Of a stretch of 64,000 nucleotides of DNA, positions 35,075-47,061 are shown piece by piece (the first letter of the stretch is position 1; each line of letters begins with the position of its first letter). A program made the translations under genes and the position numbers. The notes beneath the pieces were generated by a model. It made no database searches. It was not told the origin of the DNA and saw nothing but the letters and a program-made list of their open reading frames with translations. The DNA is taken from NCBI GenBank assembly GCA_963665295.1, contig OY762209.1, forward strand, positions 2,400,001 to 2,464,000, read 5' to 3'. Origin of the DNA: Syntrophorhabdaceae bacterium (GTDB lineage Bacteria; Desulfobacterota; Syntrophorhabdia; Syntrophorhabdales; Syntrophorhabdaceae).

Positions 35075-35388
35075 CATGAGGGTTTTCGAAGGTGCGGCAT
35101 GAAGCGGGGAGATCAAGAAGCAACAGCTGGACGGGATCAGCCTCCGAGGCGGTCGAGAATTCTTAAACTAATCTTCGCGAGACTGACATACTGTTGGCAG
35201 TAGGGCTGTGGTAAATCAACGTAAAGCGACGACATGCAGTACGGTTCGGTCCACTTTATGATTGAAATACCCGACAGAGGGGAGCAGAATTGAAGAAGAA
35301 GGGAACAGGCAAGTCAAACGGTTCAAATGAACGGGTTTTCTCCGGCCGGACTTTACCGGAGCGAGACCAAAGCCAACCGCCGCCACAA

Positions 35389-37959
35389 ATGGATGATATG
35401 ACTTACTTTTGGGCAAAAACCACATCAGACGGTAAACCAGGGATTTCAGTTTACAATCATATGTTGAATGTCGGGTACGTTGCCCGTTGTATTGCCGAAA
35501 TGTCTCCGAAGGTTCTCGAGAGATTCGGTTTGAGATCGGTCGAGGTCGGTGCTTTGGCTGCCCTCCACGATCTGGGCAAGATTTCCCCCGGTTTCCAACG
35601 AAAATGCGAAGTCTGGCTGGAGGAAAACGGTTTGGTGAAGGTCGCTCGCAACGGATGTTGGGACACTGGTATGGAACCTGATCATGGCAAGACTTCACAT
35701 TCCGCAGTGCAGGATTTTCTCATGGGTCGAGGTATTGCAAGGAATATTGCCATGTATTTGGCGGCCGTTCTCGGTGCACATCATGGAAGGATCAAGTTCC
35801 ATCCCAACCCTCGTGGAATAAGGCCGCCGATCATCAGACAGATTGCTGATAGCAACAGCGGCATCGATTGGGACAATGAGCGTCTCAAATGCGCGGAACG
35901 ACTCTGGGTTGATTTTAACGCTCAAACCTCTCTCCTTTCTCCGAAGCATGAAGTGTCTGCCCTCTGGTGGCTTGCCGGACTTACGTCGGTAGCAGACTGG
36001 ATCGGCTCCGACGAACGGTTCTTTCCCGCGGATAAACGCCCGGTTAACCTCCCGGCTAATGCGCTTCAGGCCCTCAATGCTATCGGATTCGGACAAACGG
36101 AATTTGTTGAAAATCTTTCATTTCATGATTTGTTCCATGATGAAGCAAAGCCCGATGTCCGGTGGATACCCAATGAGATGCAGGAAGCAACTCTCGCCGC
36201 AGTTCGCCGCCCCGGAATTTATGTTATCGAAGCCCCAATGGGTATGGGCAAGACTGAGGCAGCGTTATGGGCGGCATATCGGATGCTCGTGTCCGGAAAA
36301 GCGACGGGGATCTATTTTGCCCTTCCCACTCAAGCCACCAGTAATCGGATGCACGTGCGAATGAACGCATTTGTGCGGCGCATATCCCGCACTTACAGCG
36401 CGAGTCGCCTGATTCATGGTAATTCTTGGCTCATGGACCAAAAAGTCACATTATTGCCCGTTGGTACAACGCTTGGTTCATCAGTTGAAGATGCTCGAGC
36501 CGGACAAGACTGGTTTTCTTCAGCAAAACGGTCGCTGCTTGCCCCTTTCGGAGTTGGAACGGTTGACCAAGCCCTGCTCGGTGTGGCGGCCGCCAAGCAC
36601 TTTTTTGTCCGTCATTTTGCGCTTGCCGGAAAAGTGGTGATAATAGATGAGGTGCATTCCTACGACGTCTACACGGGACGGCTTATAGACACGCTCATGG
36701 AGGCACTTGAAGGGCTGGGATGCACGATCATTGTTCTGTCGGCAACACTTACGGGGAAACGGCGCAGACAGATCATCGCCTGCTCCGGCGACATGGCGGA
36801 TGACCCAGAGCAGCCGTATCCCCTCCTTACCGGCCAAGCAGAAGGAGAAACTCTCAAACCGGTTGCCTCGACGCCGCCTGATCCGCGTGTTATCAAAGTA
36901 GACTTCCTGTCAGAGGCGAAGGCAACCGAAGAGGCTATCAGGCTGGGCCAAAACGGAGGAGCAGTAATCTGGATTTGTAATACGGTTGAGGCGGCACAAA
37001 GGCAATACGAACGGCTAACGCAAATTGTCAGGAAAGAGTTCCCTGTAGGCCTTTTGCACGCGCGCTTTCCGTTTTGGCGGCGCGAAGAACTTGAGACGGA
37101 ATGGATGGGAAGGTTCGGCAAGGATGGGGCAACCCGATGCGGTTCGATTCTTGTGTCTACTCAAATAGTCGAACAGAGCGTTGACCTCGATGCGGACCTC
37201 TTGATTACGGAGTTGGCACCTACCGACATGTTGCTGCAGCGTCTCGGTCGCCTCTGGAGACACAACCGGCCGAATCGGCCGGTTGACAGTCCGCGTATCT
37301 GTATCGTCGATGAAGAGGCAGACCTTGAAGAACTACGGGTGATGGAGCCGAACACTATCGTCACGGCGCTCGGCAAGAAAGCAAAGGTATATGCGCCGTT
37401 CATCCTTCTTCGGTCGCTTGAGGTTTGGAAAGATTTGCCGCAGGAAGTGACGATCCCTTTACAGATTCGAAAATTGATCGAATCGACCTATGAGGATCGG
37501 GAAAATGAGCCGGACTCATGGTTGAAGCTTCGCAGTGAGTGGTTTGGAACTGATTCAGCAAAAAAAATGTTTGCGTTGCGAAATACCAACATCTGGCAGT
37601 TGGCGTTGGAAGATCAGGAAGGCATGCAGACCAGAACTAATGAGATGCCGACGGTTCCCATGGTGCTTTGCCGGAGCATGAGTAAGCAGGAAGCGTCGTT
37701 TATCGACGGTACATCAGAGAATTTGGGCGAAGATAAGTTCCGGCTCTCATTGGCACAGGCAATTCACAGGAATCTGGTGAGAATACCGGAATATTGCTTC
37801 GACCATGTTGAATTACACCTCCCGTTTGCCGACTATCTGCATGGCCCGCAGTGTGCCGGTATCGTTTCCGAGAATGGAGGTGTGAAAACGAATGGCCTGC
37901 AAAAAGGGGTTAGCCTCCACTATTCCGACGTGTTGGGCCTTGTTATTGATGAAATATAG
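35389..37959 (+). CDS. cas3: CRISPR-associated helicase/nuclease Cas3
   Basis: HD motif LHDLGK, APMGMGKTEAA, DEVH, SAT, QRLGRLWRH; start could be 35290, 35389 or 35398. Confidence 0.95.
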   Translation: MDDMTYFWAKTTSDGKPGISVYNHMLNVGYVARCIAEMSPKVLERFGLRSVEVGALAALHDLGKISPGFQRKCEVWLEENGLVKVARNGCWDTGMEPDHGKTSHSAVQDFLMGRGIARNIAMYLAAVLGAHHGRIKFHPNPRGIRPPIIRQIADSNSGIDWDNERLKCAERLWVDFNAQTSLLSPKHEVSALWWLAGLTSVADWIGSDERFFPADKRPVNLPANALQALNAIGFGQTEFVENLSFHDLFHDEAKPDVRWIPNEMQEATLAAVRRPGIYVIEAPMGMGKTEAALWAAYRMLVSGKATGIYFALPTQATSNRMHVRMNAFVRRISRTYSASRLIHGNSWLMDQKVTLLPVGTTLGSSVEDARAGQDWFSSAKRSLLAPFGVGTVDQALLGVAAAKHFFVRHFALAGKVVIIDEVHSYDVYTGRLIDTLMEALEGLGCTIIVLSATLTGKRRRQIIACSGDMADDPEQPYPLLTGQAEGETLKPVASTPPDPRVIKVDFLSEAKATEEAIRLGQNGGAVIWICNTVEAAQRQYERLTQIVRKEFPVGLLHARFPFWRREELETEWMGRFGKDGATRCGSILVSTQIVEQSVDLDADLLITELAPTDMLLQRLGRLWRHNRPNRPVDSPRICIVDEEADLEELRVMEPNTIVTALGKKAKVYAPFILLRSLEVWKDLPQEVTIPLQIRKLIESTYEDRENEPDSWLKLRSEWFGTDSAKKMFALRNTNIWQLALEDQEGMQTRTNEMPTVPMVLCRSMSKQEASFIDGTSENLGEDKFRLSLAQAIHRNLVRIPEYCFDHVELHLPFADYLHGPQCAGIVSENGGVKTNGLQKGVSLHYSDVLGLVIDEI

Positions 37960-37973
37960 GTGAAGGAGGGGAT

Positions 37974-39614
37974 ATGAATGTTGCCTTTGATGCATGGATA
38001 CCGGTTGTAATCACCGGAGGCAAACCGCACTTGGCAAGCCTTTGCAGTGTGTTCACCGAGGGAGATCAATACGCCGACCTCGCGGTGCGCCCCCACGAAA
38101 GAGTCGCCTTAATGCGACTCTTTCTCTGTGTCGCTCATGCCGCGCTCGAGGGGCCTAAGAATGACGAAGGATGGTGCGATGTCCCAAAAAGACTACCTGG
38201 AGCGGCGAGAGATTATCTTAAAACGTGGGAAGATTCTTTCGAGCTTTTCCATAAGACCAAGCCATGGTTGCAGGTGGCTGAATTAAAGGGGGTCGAAACG
38301 AGCGGTCCTGATTCCAGAAAGACCTCGCCGGTCGCACTTCTTGATTTTGAATTGGCAACAGGAAACAACTCGACTCTTTACGACCACGAAGGTTCCTTGA
38401 TCTCTCGTCACGTTGATCTCGAACGAGTCGCCCTGAATTTGCTGACGTTTCAGAACTTTTCCTCCGGGGGCGGTTCACCTGTTGCGCAGTGGAAAATGGT
38501 CGGCACCTCTCAGATAGGCAATCCGGACGCCCCTTGTCTGTCTCAATCCATGGCGCACTGTCTGTTACGCGGAAGATCGTTGGGAGACACTATATGGTTT
38601 AATCTGCCTTCATTCGAGACAATTAAGAGAACATACAGAATGCATTCGTCCGATAAGAAGAAGGGTGATACCTTTGCCGACGTCGCGCTAGGCAGGCCTG
38701 TATGGGAGTCTTTCCCTCAATGGCCCGAAAGCGAGTCGGACGACGCCATCAATGCCACAAGGACTTACCTTGGCCGGCTGGTGCCAATATCTCGATGGAT
38801 TCGTCTTATTCACGGTACGGATCAAATGTATTGCTGTAACGGGTTCAAATACATCACATTCAAAGGCGGGTTTGCTCCGGAGCCTACCTCGGCAAGCCGG
38901 TTGATTACGAAAAAGGATAAGAAAGGAATTGCGACCCAAGAGAGGAGGATTGTAAAGGTGGACCCGTCCAAGGCTTTGTGGCGGGAGTTGTCCTCCCTGC
39001 TCATAAAACGTTCCGCAGATGGAATGGGTGGACCGTTGGCGATGAACAACGCTCCATATGACACAGAGTTCGATTTCCAGGTGTGTGCAATCACACGAGA
39101 CCAAGCCTCTATGGATATTGCCTTGGAGTCCGTATTCAATATTACCCCGGCACTTCAGCGAAATTTATCTTCTTATCAGGCCGAGGTGGCCGGAGGTGAG
39201 AAAGTCATCGGGGCAGAAGGTTACGCTCGAAAACTCAGATGGGCGATAGAGGATTATCGCTCAGCAATTGACAGCGATTGGCAACCTCGTGTCAAGAGAA
39301 CCCAGCCGAAAGAGCGCGAGGCTTTGCGAGACAGGCTAGCGTCAACAGCCCTTATGTCGTATTGGACCACTGTAGAAAGGAATCTTCCGCTCCTTATGGC
39401 GCACATCGAAGCCATCGGCACCGATGCTGCCGTTCCCACCCGCGAAGCATGGCGAAAAACGCTCTTTCGCGCTGCCCATGACGCATATAGAATAGCCTGC
39501 GGACAGGAAACACCACGACAGATGAAAGCGTTTGTTAGAGGGCTACAAAAACTGCAAAAAGTAAAGGACGATACTAAACCAAATACCAACGGAGAAGAGG
39601 AGGAGAAAGAATGA
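37974..39614 (+). CDS. casA: Type I-E Cascade large subunit Cse1/CasA (Cas8e)
   Basis: WIPV N-terminus, FELFH..PWLQ; position directly after cas3. Confidence 0.88.
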   Translation: MNVAFDAWIPVVITGGKPHLASLCSVFTEGDQYADLAVRPHERVALMRLFLCVAHAALEGPKNDEGWCDVPKRLPGAARDYLKTWEDSFELFHKTKPWLQVAELKGVETSGPDSRKTSPVALLDFELATGNNSTLYDHEGSLISRHVDLERVALNLLTFQNFSSGGGSPVAQWKMVGTSQIGNPDAPCLSQSMAHCLLRGRSLGDTIWFNLPSFETIKRTYRMHSSDKKKGDTFADVALGRPVWESFPQWPESESDDAINATRTYLGRLVPISRWIRLIHGTDQMYCCNGFKYITFKGGFAPEPTSASRLITKKDKKGIATQERRIVKVDPSKALWRELSSLLIKRSADGMGGPLAMNNAPYDTEFDFQVCAITRDQASMDIALESVFNITPALQRNLSSYQAEVAGGEKVIGAEGYARKLRWAIEDYRSAIDSDWQPRVKRTQPKEREALRDRLASTALMSYWTTVERNLPLLMAHIEAIGTDAAVPTREAWRKTLFRAAHDAYRIACGQETPRQMKAFVRGLQKLQKVKDDTKPNTNGEEEEKE

Positions 39615-40108
39615 GCCGACTTCTTGAAGAACTGCGCAAGTGCAAGGCGCAAGATGATCGGGGGATGATGGCTGATCTTCGATGTATACTTGTTGATAGT
39701 AAGAAACACCGCGCCTGGCCCGCATTAAACCGCCTGGGGGTGCCGATCAACGAAGAGGTCTCGTCGTTTATTGCCGGACTTTACGCTACCCATCCCGATG
39801 AAACGTCCAGCGGAAATTTCGGCACAACCTGTAGGGTGATTAAACAGAGGCGGGATGACAGTGGACGTGACGACAGCAAACTAACCCCAACTGAACGGCG
39901 ATTCCAGCACTTGCTGGCTGCTGAACGTGGCGGAGAACTGCACGCGCGAATTCTAAGGATGGTCCTGATCGCAAAAGCAGAGGGTGTTCCGGTTAACTAT
40001 GCCCGGCTGGAGACCGACCTCAGAAGAAATGATGATTGGAGAAAAACAGAATGGGCGACCTCTTTCTGGATGCAAGACAAAACGCCTGGGCCTGAGGGGG
40101 CTCTATGA
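39611..40108 (+). CDS. casB: Type I-E small subunit Cse2/CasB (Cas11)
   Basis: ADLR, ERRFQHLL, VNYARL..DL..W; operon position. Confidence 0.85.
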   Translation: MSRLLEELRKCKAQDDRGMMADLRCILVDSKKHRAWPALNRLGVPINEEVSSFIAGLYATHPDETSSGNFGTTCRVIKQRRDDSGRDDSKLTPTERRFQHLLAAERGGELHARILRMVLIAKAEGVPVNYARLETDLRRNDDWRKTEWATSFWMQDKTPGPEGAL

Positions 40109-40824
40109 GTTGGCTCGCACGTTTGGAAGTTGATGCAAAGACAATTCGCAATCAAGGTATTTCGGATGACGTTTACACATGGCACAAGATGTTGTGGGAC
40201 TGTTACCCGAATTCACCGGACGCCGAGCGCGATTTCCTGACACGGATTGACCACCTTGAAGGAGCATACCGATTTTGGGTTATGGCCAAACGCAAGCCGG
40301 CTTGTCCCAAATGGTGCCCGGCTGATGGTTTTTCTCTCAATGAGATCAGGTCATCCTTCCTCAGTTATCGCTACTATGCCTTTGACGTGCGTGTCAATCC
40401 CACGAAATGCATAGCCCAAAAGGGTCCCGGCGGAGAAATCCTTTTTCAAAGGGACTCAAACGGAGAAATCCTACGCAATGCTGATGGAAGGCCAAAACGG
40501 AAACACGGAAAACGCGTGCCCTTGATGAAACCAGATGATTTGCGCGCATGGCTGATTCGCAAGGGGAGAGTACGCTGCACGAAAGATGGTAACGACACGC
40601 CGGGAGGATTCAGGGTCCTGGATGAAAAGCCGCTCGAAATCAGTCCCATGGTCGAGAATCATTTCCGCAAGAAAGGGCATACGGGTTATCACGGAGGAGT
40701 TCAGTTTCGCGGGGTTTTGGAAGTTACCGACCGCGAAAAGTTTGTTGAAACCTACGAATGCGGTCTGGGCAGCGCCAAAAGCTTCGGCTTTGGCCTGTTG
40801 CTTCTTGCACCGGTAAGCATATAA
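40105..40824 (+). CDS. cas6e: Cas6e/Cse3 crRNA processing endonuclease
   Basis: HKMLW, NPTK, C-terminal GLGSAKSFGFGLL. Confidence 0.92.
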   Translation: MSWLARLEVDAKTIRNQGISDDVYTWHKMLWDCYPNSPDAERDFLTRIDHLEGAYRFWVMAKRKPACPKWCPADGFSLNEIRSSFLSYRYYAFDVRVNPTKCIAQKGPGGEILFQRDSNGEILRNADGRPKRKHGKRVPLMKPDDLRAWLIRKGRVRCTKDGNDTPGGFRVLDEKPLEISPMVENHFRKKGHTGYHGGVQFRGVLEVTDREKFVETYECGLGSAKSFGFGLLLLAPVSI

Positions 40825-40845
40825 AAGACGATAAGGAGAATTCAC

Positions 40846-42120
40846 ATGAAACATATGGAATTGCACATCATTCAGTCCGTTCCTGTAGCCTGTCTTAATC
40901 GTGACGATCTCAACTCGCCCAAAACGGCAGTTTTCGGGGGCGTTCAGCGGGCGCGCGTTTCCAGCCAATCCTGGAAGCGGGCTATTCGGGAGACGGCGGA
41001 AAAGGAAGTCGATGCCTCTGGTCAATTTCGGGGGAAGCGTAGCCGCCTGTTTATTGAGAAAATCTCTTCGGCGCTCCAGGCTTTGGGGGAGGGTGAAATC
41101 ACCGCTCGTGCCCTGGCTATTTGCGTCGGCCATTATCTCGCAAAACTCGATCCGAAACAGGAGGGAAAAGTAAAGACTCTCGTGTTTCTTTCACCGCTGG
41201 AATATCAAATACTTGCAAAGGCCCTTTTTGTTTTGGATGACGACGCAAAAAAGACTTTGGTATCGGCTGTCGGCTCTGTGGACATATCAAAATTGGCAAC
41301 CGATGATGACAATAAAGAAGAAGGCGAGGACGATAAAGCCGAGAAACCAAAAAAAGGTGAGAACAAACTGTCTGCCAAAAAGTTCACTCAGTTGGTAGCC
41401 AGAATCATGAAATCTCCGATAGAAAAGGCATTCAGGGGAGAAAAGAAAGAACTGAAAAGCCTTCCTAAAGATGCCGCCGACATTGCCCTTTTTGGCCGCA
41501 TGGTCGCCAACGATCATTCTTTGACGGTCGAAGCCGCTTCTATGTTTTCGCATGCGCTGTCAACGCACAAGGCAGATAATGAAATCGACTTCTTTGCCGC
41601 CGTGGATGACTTGCAGCCAAAAGATGAATCGGGAGCAGGTATGACCAGCACGTTAGAGTTCAATTCCGCCACATACTATCGTTTTGCCGCCCTCAATCTC
41701 GACATGCTTGCCGATGCAGATCACCTCAAGGATTTGACTTGGAAAGAGCGGCAAGAGGTGGTGCGCACCTTCGTGGAAGCAACCATAAAGGCGGTTCCCG
41801 GAGCTCGTATGAACACCATGAACAGCAATACGCTCCCTGCCTATGTGCTCGGCGTGGTGCGAGAAAAGGGCCATCCGATCCAATTGGTCAATGCCTTCGA
41901 AGCCGCAGTGCGCCCTTCGGTGAGAGGCTTCGTTGTTGACTCCGTAAACAGGATGAATATCGAGTATTCAGATCTTAAGGATACGTGGGGCATTGACTCC
42001 GTCTTTGCAAAGGCGGTCGCAAAGGGAAACCTGAAAAACGCCATTAAAGATGATCTTGGCGCCATCGAAACTTGTTCGCTGGACGATCTCATTAACGGGA
42101 TGGTGGCTCATGTCATCTGA
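40846..42120 (+). CDS. cas7e: Cas7e/Cse4 backbone subunit
   Basis: LNRDDLNSPK..FGG..RARVSSQSWKR, DIALFGRM, DFFAAVDD. Confidence 0.95.
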   Translation: MKHMELHIIQSVPVACLNRDDLNSPKTAVFGGVQRARVSSQSWKRAIRETAEKEVDASGQFRGKRSRLFIEKISSALQALGEGEITARALAICVGHYLAKLDPKQEGKVKTLVFLSPLEYQILAKALFVLDDDAKKTLVSAVGSVDISKLATDDDNKEEGEDDKAEKPKKGENKLSAKKFTQLVARIMKSPIEKAFRGEKKELKSLPKDAADIALFGRMVANDHSLTVEAASMFSHALSTHKADNEIDFFAAVDDLQPKDESGAGMTSTLEFNSATYYRFAALNLDMLADADHLKDLTWKERQEVVRTFVEATIKAVPGARMNTMNSNTLPAYVLGVVREKGHPIQLVNAFEAAVRPSVRGFVVDSVNRMNIEYSDLKDTWGIDSVFAKAVAKGNLKNAIKDDLGAIETCSLDDLINGMVAHVI

Positions 42121-42805
42121 CAAGTCTTTCCTGGCTCTTCGCTTGCAGGGTCCCCTTCAATCGTGGGGGTTTGACGGCCAGTACAGCCGCCGCAATACCG
42201 GTCTGATACCCACCAAAAGCGCCATCGGCGGGATGTGCTGCGCGGCGCTCGGTTGGTCGCGGGGCAGCAGAGAAGAGGAGAACTTTCTCGCATTATTCGG
42301 GGATATACGGATGACCGCCATCGTCATTCCAAGAATCAGGTCCGGGAGACAGATGCCGGTTCGTCGGCTGCAAGACTATCATACAGTACAGAATACTAGA
42401 ACCGCGGACGGCAAAACCAAAGATTGCCACATTACTCGTCGGCAATATCTCACAGACGCATGTTTCGGGATTCTTCTTGACGGCGACACAAGTCTGCTAA
42501 GCCGGATAGCCGCAGCTCTTGCCGACCCAATTTGGGGGATATGGCTTGGCCGCAAGGCATGCATCCCGTCGGCCCCGGTCCTTGCGGGATTGCGGAACAA
42601 TCGGGACGATGCGCTATGTCTCCTCATCGGCGATACGCCTGTCGAATCGTTTACACGGCAGGAAGAGGTCGAAGACTTCGCGGAGGGTCACGATTCCCTC
42701 CCGGATGCACCAGTTTCGTTTGCCGTGGGAAAAAGGTTGTTCTCGCCAAGAAGAGTGCGAACACTGCAAGGAGCAGCACGGCCACAGTATGACGGGAATC
42801 AGTAA
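42110..42805 (+). CDS. cas5e: Cas5e/CasD
   Basis: LQGPLQSWG, PTKSAIGG, DYHTV, LGRKAC. Confidence 0.93.
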   Translation: MSSDKSFLALRLQGPLQSWGFDGQYSRRNTGLIPTKSAIGGMCCAALGWSRGSREEENFLALFGDIRMTAIVIPRIRSGRQMPVRRLQDYHTVQNTRTADGKTKDCHITRRQYLTDACFGILLDGDTSLLSRIAAALADPIWGIWLGRKACIPSAPVLAGLRNNRDDALCLLIGDTPVESFTRQEEVEDFAEGHDSLPDAPVSFAVGKRLFSPRRVRTLQGAARPQYDGNQ

Positions 42806-42837
42806 GATGAAGAGTAACGGCTTCGAAGGGTGGTAGA

Positions 42838-43290
42838 ATGGAGTCTCACATAGCCGTTTTCAAAAGCAAGGAAATAGAAAGGACGATTCATAGGAACGAG
42901 TGGTGGATTGCTGTCCGGGAAGAGCTTACCGATGAGTGGAAGAAACGAGATGTGCGCCTGGAACAGGAGTACACAATTCTCACGGCGGAGATTGCAGGAG
43001 CGGCTTTAGGGGTTACTCCCGATGAGCATAGGGAGTTGAAGGGCCGGAAACGTCGGAACCTACGTGACCACGTGACCGATCTCGAACTGATCTTCTCCAT
43101 ATTAGGAGAACCAGCCACGACCAAGATAACAGGGATTGAAGATGCAAAGGGACTCTAAGGAAACGAACAGGCTGCTCGTAAAGGTGGAGAACCGGCAGGT
43201 GCGGCAAGAAGAGACCTCGAAGAAGAGACGGGCAAACCTGGTGTGGCGCCTGAGAATTACCTTCAGGGCCACAAGGATCGAAGAAGATAA
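42838..43290 (+). pseudogene. Degraded Bro-N/antirepressor-like gene
   Basis: IAVFKSKEI..NEWW joined directly to IAVREELTDEW..NLRDH.TDLELIF; in-frame TAA at 43156-43158 followed by AARKGG..AG.ARRDLE..TGK..ENYL. Confidence 0.65.
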
Positions 43291-43305
43291 AAGGGAAGTG
43301 ATGCC

Positions 43306-44518
<1,213 letters not shown>

Positions 44519-44580
44519 AATTTGTTGGTAGAAGTTTGCTCTTTGACAATTGACCTTTATTTCCAGCGGTTGCAAGAAAT
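44519..44580 (+). promoter_or_regulatory. CRISPR leader
   Basis: AT-rich segment between cas2 and the first repeat with GTTGGTAGA motif typical of I-E leaders. Confidence 0.65.
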
Positions 44581-46075
44581 ATGTTCCCCGCATACGCGGG
44601 GATGAACCGTACAGGTCACTTTCCAATAAGGGACCGCAGGGATGTTCCCCGCATACGCGGGGATGAACCGCCACCCGGCCCACCCGGCCACAGGGACCGA
44701 GGATGTTCCCCGCATACGCGGGGATGAACCGGTTGAGCACCAGGCCACATTATATAAGCTGACATGTTCCCCGCATACGCGGGGATGAACCGACAATCCG
44801 GGCGATTTACGCGCGCGTGGGCGGATGTTCCCCGCATACGCGGGGATGAACCGGTAGAAATCGGCATAGGGGCAGGGGTGACGACATGTTCCCCGCATAC
44901 GCGGGGATGAACCGGCTCCTGCCATTCGGGGCAAAAGCAATTCCGGATGTTCCCCGCATACGCGGGGATGAACCGTTTCATTTGAATTTGAGATAGATCA
45001 GGTCCCGATGTTCCCCGCATACGCGGGGATGAACCGGCATTCGGCTCCATGTCGGACGCCCTTTCTGAATGTTCCCCGCACACGCGGGGATGAACCGCCA
45101 AGGAAAACGGTCTTGTGGTGGTCTTTGGAATGTTCCCCGCACACGCGGGGATGAACCGGCAGCGTGCTGGGCCTGCATTTTGTTGAAGGAATGTTCCCCG
45201 CACACAAGGGGATGAACCGATGTGCTACAAGTAAGGGCATGGGGAAAGAGAATGTTCCCCGCACACGCGGGGATGAACCGTGAGCATACCCATTTATCAG
45301 GCACTCAATGAGATGTTCCCCGCACACGCGGGGATGAACCGGCGAGGGCGTAGGGCCATACTTTACGGGCAACATGTTCCCCGCACACGCGGGGATGAAC
45401 CGGGCCGGGAAATATTTATCAGCCTGCGGGACGTATGTTCCCCGCACACGCGGGGATGAACCGCCTCGACACCGCCTTTGACGGCACCAGTTCCACATGT
45501 TCCCCGCACACGCGGGGATGAACCGCCATCTTCGGGGTGGTCTTCTTCTCATGGCTCATGTTCCCCGCACACGCGGGGATGAACCGGCCATGGAAGGCGT
45601 GGGCTACGAACCGGGCATCATGTTCCCCGCACACGCGGGGATGAACCGATACTGGGGATTGTATGACGATGGACGTTCAGATGTTCCCTGCACACGCGGG
45701 GATGAACCGGTGTGGGCCGCGAAAATGGCGTGGGAATGCCGATGTTCCCCGCACACGCGGGGATGAACCGTTAAACACGGCGTACCCTATCTACGTTACA
45801 GAATGTTCCCCGCACACGCGGGGATGAACCGCGGCAGTAGTTGTAGGCGACCTGTGCTTTGTAATGTTCCCCGCACGCGCGGGGATGAACCGGACCCGTC
45901 AATTCCCAATGCTTACTACGTTCAATGTTCCCCGCACACGCGGGGATGAACCGTCACCAGGAATAAAACGGGTCGGGGCGGTTTCACGTTCCCCGCACAC
46001 GCGGGGATGAACCGATGTACGCCGGTCTCGACAGCGAGATCATCAAATGTTCCCCACACACGCGGGGATGAACCG
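44581..46075 (+). CRISPR. Type I-E CRISPR array, 25 repeats and 24 spacers
   Basis: 29-nt repeat ATGTTCCCCGCA(T/C)ACGCGGGGATGAACCG with 32-33 nt spacers, 61-62 nt period. Confidence 0.99.
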
Positions 46076-46327
46076 AGGTCCGCTCTGTTGAGGAGGGAAA
46101 GGGCATCCCTGATGCTGTTGCTGGATATGACGCGGTGTGGTGGGACACCGAAGACCCGCCCTCGTGTATGTGTCGGCAGGGCCGGAACGGACATCGAGAT
46201 TGTCGTTAGGGTAAGCTATAAAGTGAAAGGGCAGCAGGACCCTGTCAAGCTCTATACGACCGCGGGAAAGGTCCAGCGACAAGCCCTCGCAACTAAAAGA
46301 TATTAGCTTATAGGGGGAAAATCGTGA
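46075..46327 (+). pseudogene. 3' remnant of a MuF-type phage head protein with BECR-like C-terminal domain
   Basis: Joining three frames gives IPDAVAGYDAVWWDTEDP/ALVYV/..EIVVRVSYKVKG..YTTAGKV..RY*LIGGKS*; two frameshifts and one TAG; similarity recognised by eye. Confidence 0.55.
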
Positions 46328-46433
46328 TGGGGCTGGAGGGGCGCCACATCCCTCATAGGGCGGTTGGCTCTGACTTTGTCAAGGCCTCGTGTCCAACTGG
46401 CCACGGCGACTTTCCAGTTGTCAGCCTCATCAC
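46324..46433 (-). ncRNA. Candidate cloverleaf (tRNA-like) non-coding RNA
   Basis: 12-bp closing stem (11/12), three internal hairpins, complementary loops, consensus promoter immediately upstream on the minus strand. Confidence 0.6.
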
Positions 46434-46438
46434 TGGAA

Positions 46439-46466
46439 ATTATACCACAGCGAAAGGATGTGTCAA
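46439..46466 (-). promoter_or_regulatory. Consensus sigma70 promoter
   Basis: Minus strand TTGACA-16nt-TATAAT with extended -10 TGn. Confidence 0.75.
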
Positions 46467-46569
46467 ATGACCCTCCGGATAAGGGCTGAGATCAAGGACG
46501 AGGAGCTAAGAGATTTCCTCCGAAACCCGGAGGAAAGGGCCGCGAACCCTGCCCCGGCAATGAAAGAGG
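46467..46569 (+). pseudogene. 5' remnant of a Mu-like virion morphogenesis gene (gpG-like)
   Basis: MTLRIRAEIKDEELRDFLRNPEERAANPAPAMKE, cut off by the repeat at 46570; follows the MuF-like remnant as in Mu-like phages. Confidence 0.55.
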
Positions 46570-46598
46570 ATGTTCCACGAGCACGCGGGAATGAACCG
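46570..46598 (+). CRISPR. Degenerate terminal CRISPR repeat
   Basis: ATGTTCCACGAGCACGCGGGAATGAACCG, 25/29 identical to the CACAC repeat. Confidence 0.85.
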
Positions 46599-46626
46599 CG
46601 ACTGGGCAACCGAGAAGTTGTAATCC

Positions 46627-47061
46627 TTGACCGCGCAACTCCTCCCCGTTGCCTTTTCCGAAAACTGTTCCATATTTCCGGGTCGGTGTCCCCTTATCCT
46701 TTTCGGAATGCCGGGCTGCGAAAAGGATCACAGAAGAGACACAAAGCAGGGCATCCCGGAGGTGACGCTCCTGACTGTAGACTATTTCATCTGGGACGAA
46801 TTACAGGTGGAGGACAACCTCAGGGAGATCTTCGCGAAAGGGAAAGAGGAAAAGAAGGCAGTGCCTCCCATAGAGGCCGTAGACAAGGAGACGTCGGATT
46901 TCATCCACAATGAAGTCAGGGACAAACCGGCGGATATCGGTACACGGCTCGGGTTCGCCGGCCGGACGGAGCGCAAGGTAGCCGAGGGCGTCGGCTTCCC
47001 ACCCGTCTGGTTCCAGGGGATGCAGGAGATCAGGGTTCTTTTAACATCGATTATCTGCTAG
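46627..47061 (+). pseudogene. Gene fragment, possibly restriction-endonuclease-like
   Basis: Protein-like stretch LLTVDYFIWDELQVE..FIHNEVRDK.ADIG..LGF...TERKVAEG with no credible start. Confidence 0.35.

Follow-up and report, generated by a model that had tools for sequence, protein, structure and literature searches.

Pseudo-spacers, fragments of mobile elements lodged between two repeats of a CRISPR array, have been reported since 2009–2013, but whether they arise by faulty integration or by recombination guided by a spacer has been left undecided. CRISPR_2 of Sulfolobus islandicus LAL14/1 contains SiL-E1, a pING1-like 'pseudo-spacer' of about 2 kb that lies between identical repeats, with homology that extends as far as these, and for which faulty processing or recombination with pre-existing spacers were proposed in the account of Jaubert et al. 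(2013; PMC3718332). For S. solfataricus, a review describes an 899-bp pNOB8-like fragment between two repeats, its size being about that of 13 repeats and 14 spacers (PMC4390879). Here we describe a 494-bp piece of Mu-like phage DNA in the last slot of a type I-E CRISPR array of a Syntrophorhabdaceae bacterium (GenBank assembly GCA_963665295.1, contig OY762209.1). The window analysed comprises 64,000 nucleotides (positions 2,400,001 to 2,464,000 of the contig, forward strand), and coordinates refer to it unless the genome, G000, is named. A copy of the protospacer adjacent motif (PAM) of this system lies inside the insert in register with the right-hand repeat, which is sequence evidence for the recombination route.

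Like SiL-E1 in its published description, the insert is foreign mobile-element DNA between two co-oriented array repeats, is collinear with known elements (at about 82% identity in SiL-E1), and has the same two candidate mechanisms. SiL-E1, however, consists of conjugative-plasmid DNA with five open reading frames (ORFs) in an archaeal array, with perfect flanking repeats and further units behind it, whereas here 494 bp of phage DNA occupy the last slot of a bacterial I-E array before a degenerate repeat, and an internal PAM appears to mark a former spacer. The S. solfataricus case, as reviewed, likewise concerns a mobile-element fragment in spacer position, derived from a plasmid there. Conservation of unit length was rejected for the present insert, since 8 units of 61 bp would give 459 bp and 9 units 520 bp. 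Recombination between a targeting spacer and a phage genome is reported to enhance CRISPR transduction (Varble et al. 2019, as cited in preprint 10.1101/2020.10.09.333658); spacer-target homology drives recombination in that case, as is proposed here, but its product is a phage with CRISPR DNA, whereas here it would be an array with phage DNA. The same preprint describes prophage phiAP1.1 of Streptococcus pyogenes, which integrates into CRISPR repeats and thus also places phage DNA between array repeats. That element is a whole prophage inserted site-specifically through a repeat-mimicking phage attachment site (attP), in contrast to the internal 0.5-kb fragment found here, and nothing resembling the repeat is present at the corresponding site of the related prophage in the present genome. 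A search for literature on unusually long spacers returned nothing relevant beyond the remark of CRISPRDetect on mutated repeats. Pseudo-spacers are therefore a known rarity, reported in archaea, to which the present locus adds a bacterial I-E member and, with the internal PAM, new mechanistic evidence. Under the recombination route, a CRISPR memory would be convertible into kilobase-scale uptake of the targeted element.

Content of the 494-bp insert

The genome holds a second copy of the fragment at G000 5451715–5452199, which is collinear with positions 15–492 of the insert at 81% identity. It belongs to an apparently intact Mu-like prophage that encodes Portal_Mu, Phage_Mu_F (381 amino acids, aa) and Phage_tail_S/gpG (144 aa) in this order, and it spans the junction of the Phage_Mu_F gene (Pfam E 1.7e-25) and the Phage_tail_S/gpG gene (E 9.2e-24). 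The F-then-G order invoked by an earlier reading of the window from its letters alone (the sequence-only reading) is thus borne out in the same genome. The insert comprises the last ~85 MuF codons, the F-G spacer, the ribosome-binding site and start of gpG, and the first 34 gpG codons, the last of which had been recognised correctly and align to the intact gpG. Identity to the prophage is 86% in the F-G spacer, 80% in the MuF part and 73% in the gpG part. With 494 nt against the 32–33 nt of a canonical I-E spacer, the insert is not a spacer by length.

The two frameshifts and one TAG that the sequence-only reading had noticed in the MuF part are seen in the alignment, in the reading frames and in tblastn against the intact copy. 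They correspond to 1-nt deletions in the C-run 46155–46157 and between 46189 and 46190, and to a premature stop codon at 46304–46306 derived from CAG; the ancestral TGA stop is at 46325–46327. The same lesions are present in short-read contigs and are therefore not assembly errors. That reading's anatomy holds overall, although it overlooked the F-G spacer of ~160 nt with its structured RNA and perfect minus-strand promoter (see below). A search for transfer RNA or transfer-messenger RNA returned none, and no evidence of selection on the insert was found.

The last slot of the array and its right junction

The array is preceded by a leader whose motif GGTAGA..TTTGCTCTTTGACAATT is also found 5' of the first repeat in six of the seven related arrays with enough upstream sequence; it is absent from L046, while an eighth array, L048, offers just 5 nt upstream. 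The leader position and this recurring motif fix the polarity of the array, so that the 494-bp gap is the trailer-most and hence the oldest slot. Repeats were searched as a regular-expression scan for ATGTTCCCCGCACACGCGGGGATGAACCG, with regular repeats allowed at most two mismatches. As claimed earlier, repeat 25 ends at 46075 and a degenerate repeat with 25 of 29 matches begins at 46570, both coordinates being recovered by the scan. The copy at 46570–46598 is the only further one on either strand of the 5.5-Mb genome, and since the best match in 500 shuffles of the downstream 502 bp was 19/29, it is a true terminal repeat. Its mismatches disrupt three of the six stem pairs, as read off the sequence itself. 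Inside the insert (best 15/29) and downstream (best 14/29), no hidden degenerate repeat rose above shuffle level.

Beyond 46598, translated searches (tblastx) and blastn against the genome detected no phage homology, and nothing there occurs in either prophage; the possibility that the phage sequence continues past the terminal repeat, raised earlier, is not borne out by the trailer. The trailers of eight related arrays are unrelated to that at 46599–47061. An ORF of 148 codons at 46467–46913 starts at the captured gpG start and ribosome-binding site and reads through the degenerate repeat into the trailer. This chimeric ORF is without a family match and is probably meaningless.

Three spacers of the array match the host's own chromosome near 2.49–2.51 Mb, and AAG stands directly 5' of all three protospacers, which establishes the PAM and its orientation for this system. 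At the right end of the insert, phage homology meets the repeat to within 2 nt, and an AAG is placed 35–33 nt before the junction (Table 1). The closest prophage retains this AAG at the position of 46535–46537. With 16 AAG triplets in the 494 nt, the chance is 3.3% for any one position and rises to about 6.5% when spacers of 33 nt are admitted as well. An AAG in exact register with the right repeat is as expected if the last 32 nt had been a canonical spacer and the upstream phage DNA had come in by homology. The segment 46538–46569 was therefore probably an ordinary spacer in the past, by which the phage DNA next to it was captured through homology.

Origin of the insert

From these sequence comparisons, the reading that we prefer is that the insert is a pseudo-spacer made by homology and not by normal spacer integration, with a probability of about 0.5 for its one- and two-anchor versions jointly. 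The oldest slot of the array would first have held an ordinary 32-nt spacer, now 46538–46569, taken from the gpG start of a Mu-like phage beside an AAG PAM. At a later meeting, whether with that phage or with a similar prophage resident in the genome, the spacer would have paired with its protospacer, and an unbroken stretch of phage DNA upstream of the protospacer, from the PAM through the gpG start and the intergenic RNA gene to the MuF tail, would have been recombined or copied in, up to repeat 25. In the two-anchor version, the left join would have been made by a neighbouring second spacer from the same phage strand, a double crossover deleting the repeat between the spacers. In the one-anchor version, a break or nick at the repeat-spacer border would have let the spacer end invade the phage, followed by leftward synthesis or recombination and sealing to repeat 25. 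In favour of a homology route, the insert is bordered by a repeat on either side, follows a phage region collinearly from 46084 onwards and contains no hidden repeat. The trailer-most slot and the three disabling MuF lesions point to an old event. A normal CRISPR RNA from the insert is impossible, because it is 494 nt long and the hairpin of the downstream repeat is lost.

Several points weigh against this reading. The insert had been said to end exactly at the repeats, which stands for the right end to within 2 nt, but at the left homology is demonstrable only from 46084, and 8 nt at the repeat are unaccounted for. In an alignment of 150 relatives of the MuF tail, the residue just before the first codon of the insert is Gly in 101 and Lys in four; at the third codon of the insert, which encodes Arg, 139 of the 150 carry Leu, Val or Ile. 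At the position of the left PAM, the prophage copy reads GTA. Since the AA of AAG cannot come from a Gly codon, a left AAG is unlikely, which weakens both the strict two-canonical-spacer model and oversized integration, as both predict it. A donor phage was sought among 50,697 phage records, in which blastn with the insert found no match, and by a family-wide search of 69 genomes with exact-motif scans of viral, genome and metagenome collections, which returned only the central RNA part; of 30 viral loci that share the MuF tail, none was closer than the 81% prophage, and a word-indexed protein search gave just two matches, one of them the query itself. With no donor above 81% identity, the left PAM is not directly readable. 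No ancestral array was found, three genomes of the same genus being without this trailer and without this repeat. Furthermore, a homology arm of 32 bp is very short, and the evidence for recombination comes from a single PAM coincidence, whose likelihood ratio is about 15–30. The left junction is compatible with the single-anchor model, and positions 46076–46083 may be either diverged phage sequence or filler. A candidate stub of the inferred old spacer in these 8 nt was rejected, its similarity (P about 0.10) not being significant.

An assembly artefact that fused the array to prophage sequence was rejected as exceedingly improbable. The related copy elsewhere in the genome does split short-read graphs, their only break being at 46325–46432, the segment shared with the prophage copy. 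Logan contigs of four public runs from two studies, one run of which may be the source sample, nevertheless bridge both the left junction (e.g. 45950–46354) and the right (46397–46720, on for 26 kb) with 0 differences and no alternative joints, and the insert differs by 19% from the prophage copy. The continuity across both junctions that the sequence-only reading had proposed to check is thus established at the level of contigs.

That reading had offered oversized integration, or recombination at two spacers matching the phage, as origins; of these, the homology route gains from the AAG at 35–33 nt, and its strict two-spacer form loses by the left junction. Type I-E Cas1-Cas2 measures prespacers with a ruler set at 33 bp, which counts against the alternative that it joined both 3' ends of an untrimmed phage fragment of ~0.5 kb to the borders of one repeat, duplicating the repeat. 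We consider such an event unlikely, although the integrase acts at repeat borders and both junctions coincide with such borders or lie close to them, cas1e and cas2e are intact in the locus, and 'faulty protospacer processing' is among the options that Jaubert et al. list for SiL-E1 (PMC3718332). It does not predict an AAG 32 nt before the right junction (a 3–6% chance), it predicts a left AAG that the Gly-dominated column makes unlikely, and none of 290 spacers read in eight related I-E arrays is a contiguous oversized insert without a repeat remnant (nine are of 30–33 nt instead of 32; two N-masked slots were not judgeable). Three units of 73–79 nt in the relatives, in L043 (array of G026) and L044 (array of G039), have a spacer fused to the 3' half of a repeat. 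They were rejected as the same phenomenon, being deletion scars with truncated repeats inside. Less probable still is a CRISPR-independent insertion, in which illegitimate end-joining placed the phage DNA within or next to the last spacer and the repeat-flush borders are accidental or were produced by later deletions. In its favour, phage origin is not demonstrable for the first 8 nt, truncated repeats occur in the arrays of relatives, and insertions and deletions are described as building up at the trailer ends of arrays (PMC4869251). On the other side, the right junction stands within 2 nt of the repeat and in PAM register, the left junction lies at most 8 nt from an intact repeat, and spacer remnants are not identifiable.

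Structured RNA and minus-strand promoter in the F-G spacer

The F-G spacer is the best-conserved part of the insert and the only part found in other genomes. It contains a conserved structured RNA, the 21-nt core of which was found in viral, genome and metagenome contigs (5, 2 and 9, respectively). Of the 30 viral loci with this tail type, 9 have the element directly against the MuF stop codon. A small ORF over the element is shifted in frame by an indel in the variable hairpin, so the reading frame is not conserved and the element is not protein-coding. Among 10 aligned sequences, 95.5% of cells are paired, against at most 52% when the partner is slid. In an alignment of 14, which includes five sequences found only by the covariance model and is fitted to the model and thereby favours the structure, the figures are 93.8% and at most 51%, with 18 of 29 pairs changed on both sides. 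Rfam gave no relevant match, its two matches (E 0.29 and 0.92) lying outside the element and belonging to eukaryotic and archaeal families, and it gave 0 matches across the 20-kb prophage region.

The sigma-70-type promoter on the minus strand aims at the element, its -35 hexamer abutting the gpG start codon. An equivalent promoter (at least 9/12) occurs in 11 of the 14 loci, with the -10 ending 3–12 nt before the outermost base of helix P1. Counts of G-U against A-C are ambiguous as to strand (27 vs 12, two near-invariant pairs contributing 21 of the 27). As the promoter is conserved and aimed at the element, the RNA is probably transcribed separately from the minus strand, in antisense to the F-G junction. 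It is a structured RNA with strong covariation, undescribed so far and linked to MuF proteins with nuclease-like tails, and may have a role as a phage regulatory or antitoxin RNA. Somewhat speculatively, the insert could carry a complete, self-promoted phage small-RNA gene, made up of the perfect promoter and the covarying RNA, which would then always go with this MuF tail type, so that a phage regulator or an RNA resembling an antitoxin would be expressed by the host from within the array; we hold this to be improbable. If it were true, the captured RNA could, for instance, counter Mu-like phages of the same kind or the nuclease-like tail of their MuF proteins, and the array would be a landing pad for gene capture.

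The type I-E locus

The cas operon at 35290–44518 on the plus strand is a complete type I-E system with all frames open. Each signature protein (Cse1, Cse2, Cas7, Cas5, Cas6e, Cas3, Cas1e and Cas2e) is matched by an NCBIfam model; seven clear the curated cut-offs, and Cas3 falls below the full-length equivalog cut-off but above both domain cut-offs. The array likewise has the traits of type I-E, namely a 29-nt repeat, spacers of 32–33 nt and a 5' AAG PAM. Between cas5 and cas1, a 106-aa ORF at 42838–43158 is without a Pfam or NCBIfam match. The three self-matching spacers target ORFs of an apparent resident prophage, namely a tape-measure-like one, a small membrane one and a ParB-like one. Given that the cas operon seems intact despite these spacers, interference is presumably silenced or inhibited.

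Table 1. Coordinates of the type I-E locus, the insert and associated features
Feature	Position	Strand	Remarks
cas genes, in order cas3, cse1, cse2, cas6e, cas7, cas5, 106-aa ORF, cas1e, cas2e	35290..44518	+	NCBIfam and Pfam matches for 8 of 9 ORFs
CRISPR leader, 62 nt	44519..44580	+	Between cas2 and repeat 1
Regular array, 25 repeats of 29 nt and 24 spacers of 32–33 nt	44581..46075	+	Repeat spacing 61–62 nt
Self-matching spacer	45342–45373		28/32 to G000 2492707–38, outside the window
Self-matching spacer	45587–45619		33/33 to G000 2487342–74, outside the window
Self-matching spacer	46015–46046		30/32 to G000 2512974–3005, outside the window
Repeat 25, left border of insert	46047..46075	+	1 mismatch
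Pseudo-spacer, 494 bp, contiguous piece of Mu-like phage late region	46076..46569	+	81% identity to prophage copy, collinear
First 8 nt of insert	46076..46083	+	2 of 8 nt match prophage; codons E-V-R atypical
Decayed MuF 3' end	46084..46327	+	Aligns to residues ~295–381 of intact copy; two tblastn segments in different frames, 61% and 62% identity
Conserved structured RNA, ~108 nt, five helices	46325..46432		Model R1, 127 bits; overlaps MuF stop codon
Loci of the RNA element	46325–46466 (window); L002 1733–1870		Also L012, L013, L015, L017, L018, L023, L026, L056–L058, L064, L079
Sigma-70-type promoter, TTGACA-16 nt-TATAAT, upstream TG (extended -10)	46439..46466	-	12/12 consensus match
Start of gpG/virion-morphogenesis gene, first 34 codons plus 1 nt	46467..46569	+	ATG at 46467; 61% identity to intact gpG residues 6–36; full-length homologue matches Phage_tail_S
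Internal AAG, equal to system PAM	46535..46537	+	Followed by exactly 32 nt, then terminal repeat
Putative former ordinary 32-nt spacer, probable homology anchor	46538..46569	+	From PAM position and exact right junction
Degenerate terminal repeat	46570..46598	+	25/29 match (4 mismatches); regular-expression scan
Trailer with 144-aa ORF	46599..47061	+	No known family: 0 matches in Pfam and PHROGs

MuF tail type and a second prophage

A BECR-like tail had been proposed for the MuF fragment, which stands at the level of the family only. A profile search found 874 relatives of the tail, and among 30 family representatives scanned, 8 match PBECR3, 15 MuF_C and one PBECR2, so that 20 representatives match at least one of the three, just two passing a curated cut-off. 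For the present protein the assignment is weak, the closest intact tail reaching E 0.011 and 16 of the 30 bits required for PBECR3. A sequence search of PDB with the tail profile gave just one match, at chance level (E 0.057).

A second, degraded Mu-like prophage (L010) lies at 1.75 Mb (G000 1747166–1750396). Its portal gene is truncated, its MuF gene is lost save for a 54-aa PBECR2-type end, and its gpG is without residues ~4–66, the missing stretch including the region equivalent to the array insert. It keeps the promoter, but with a differing downstream sequence and the PBECR2-type tail remnant, which hints, with n = 2, that tail type and RNA type go together.

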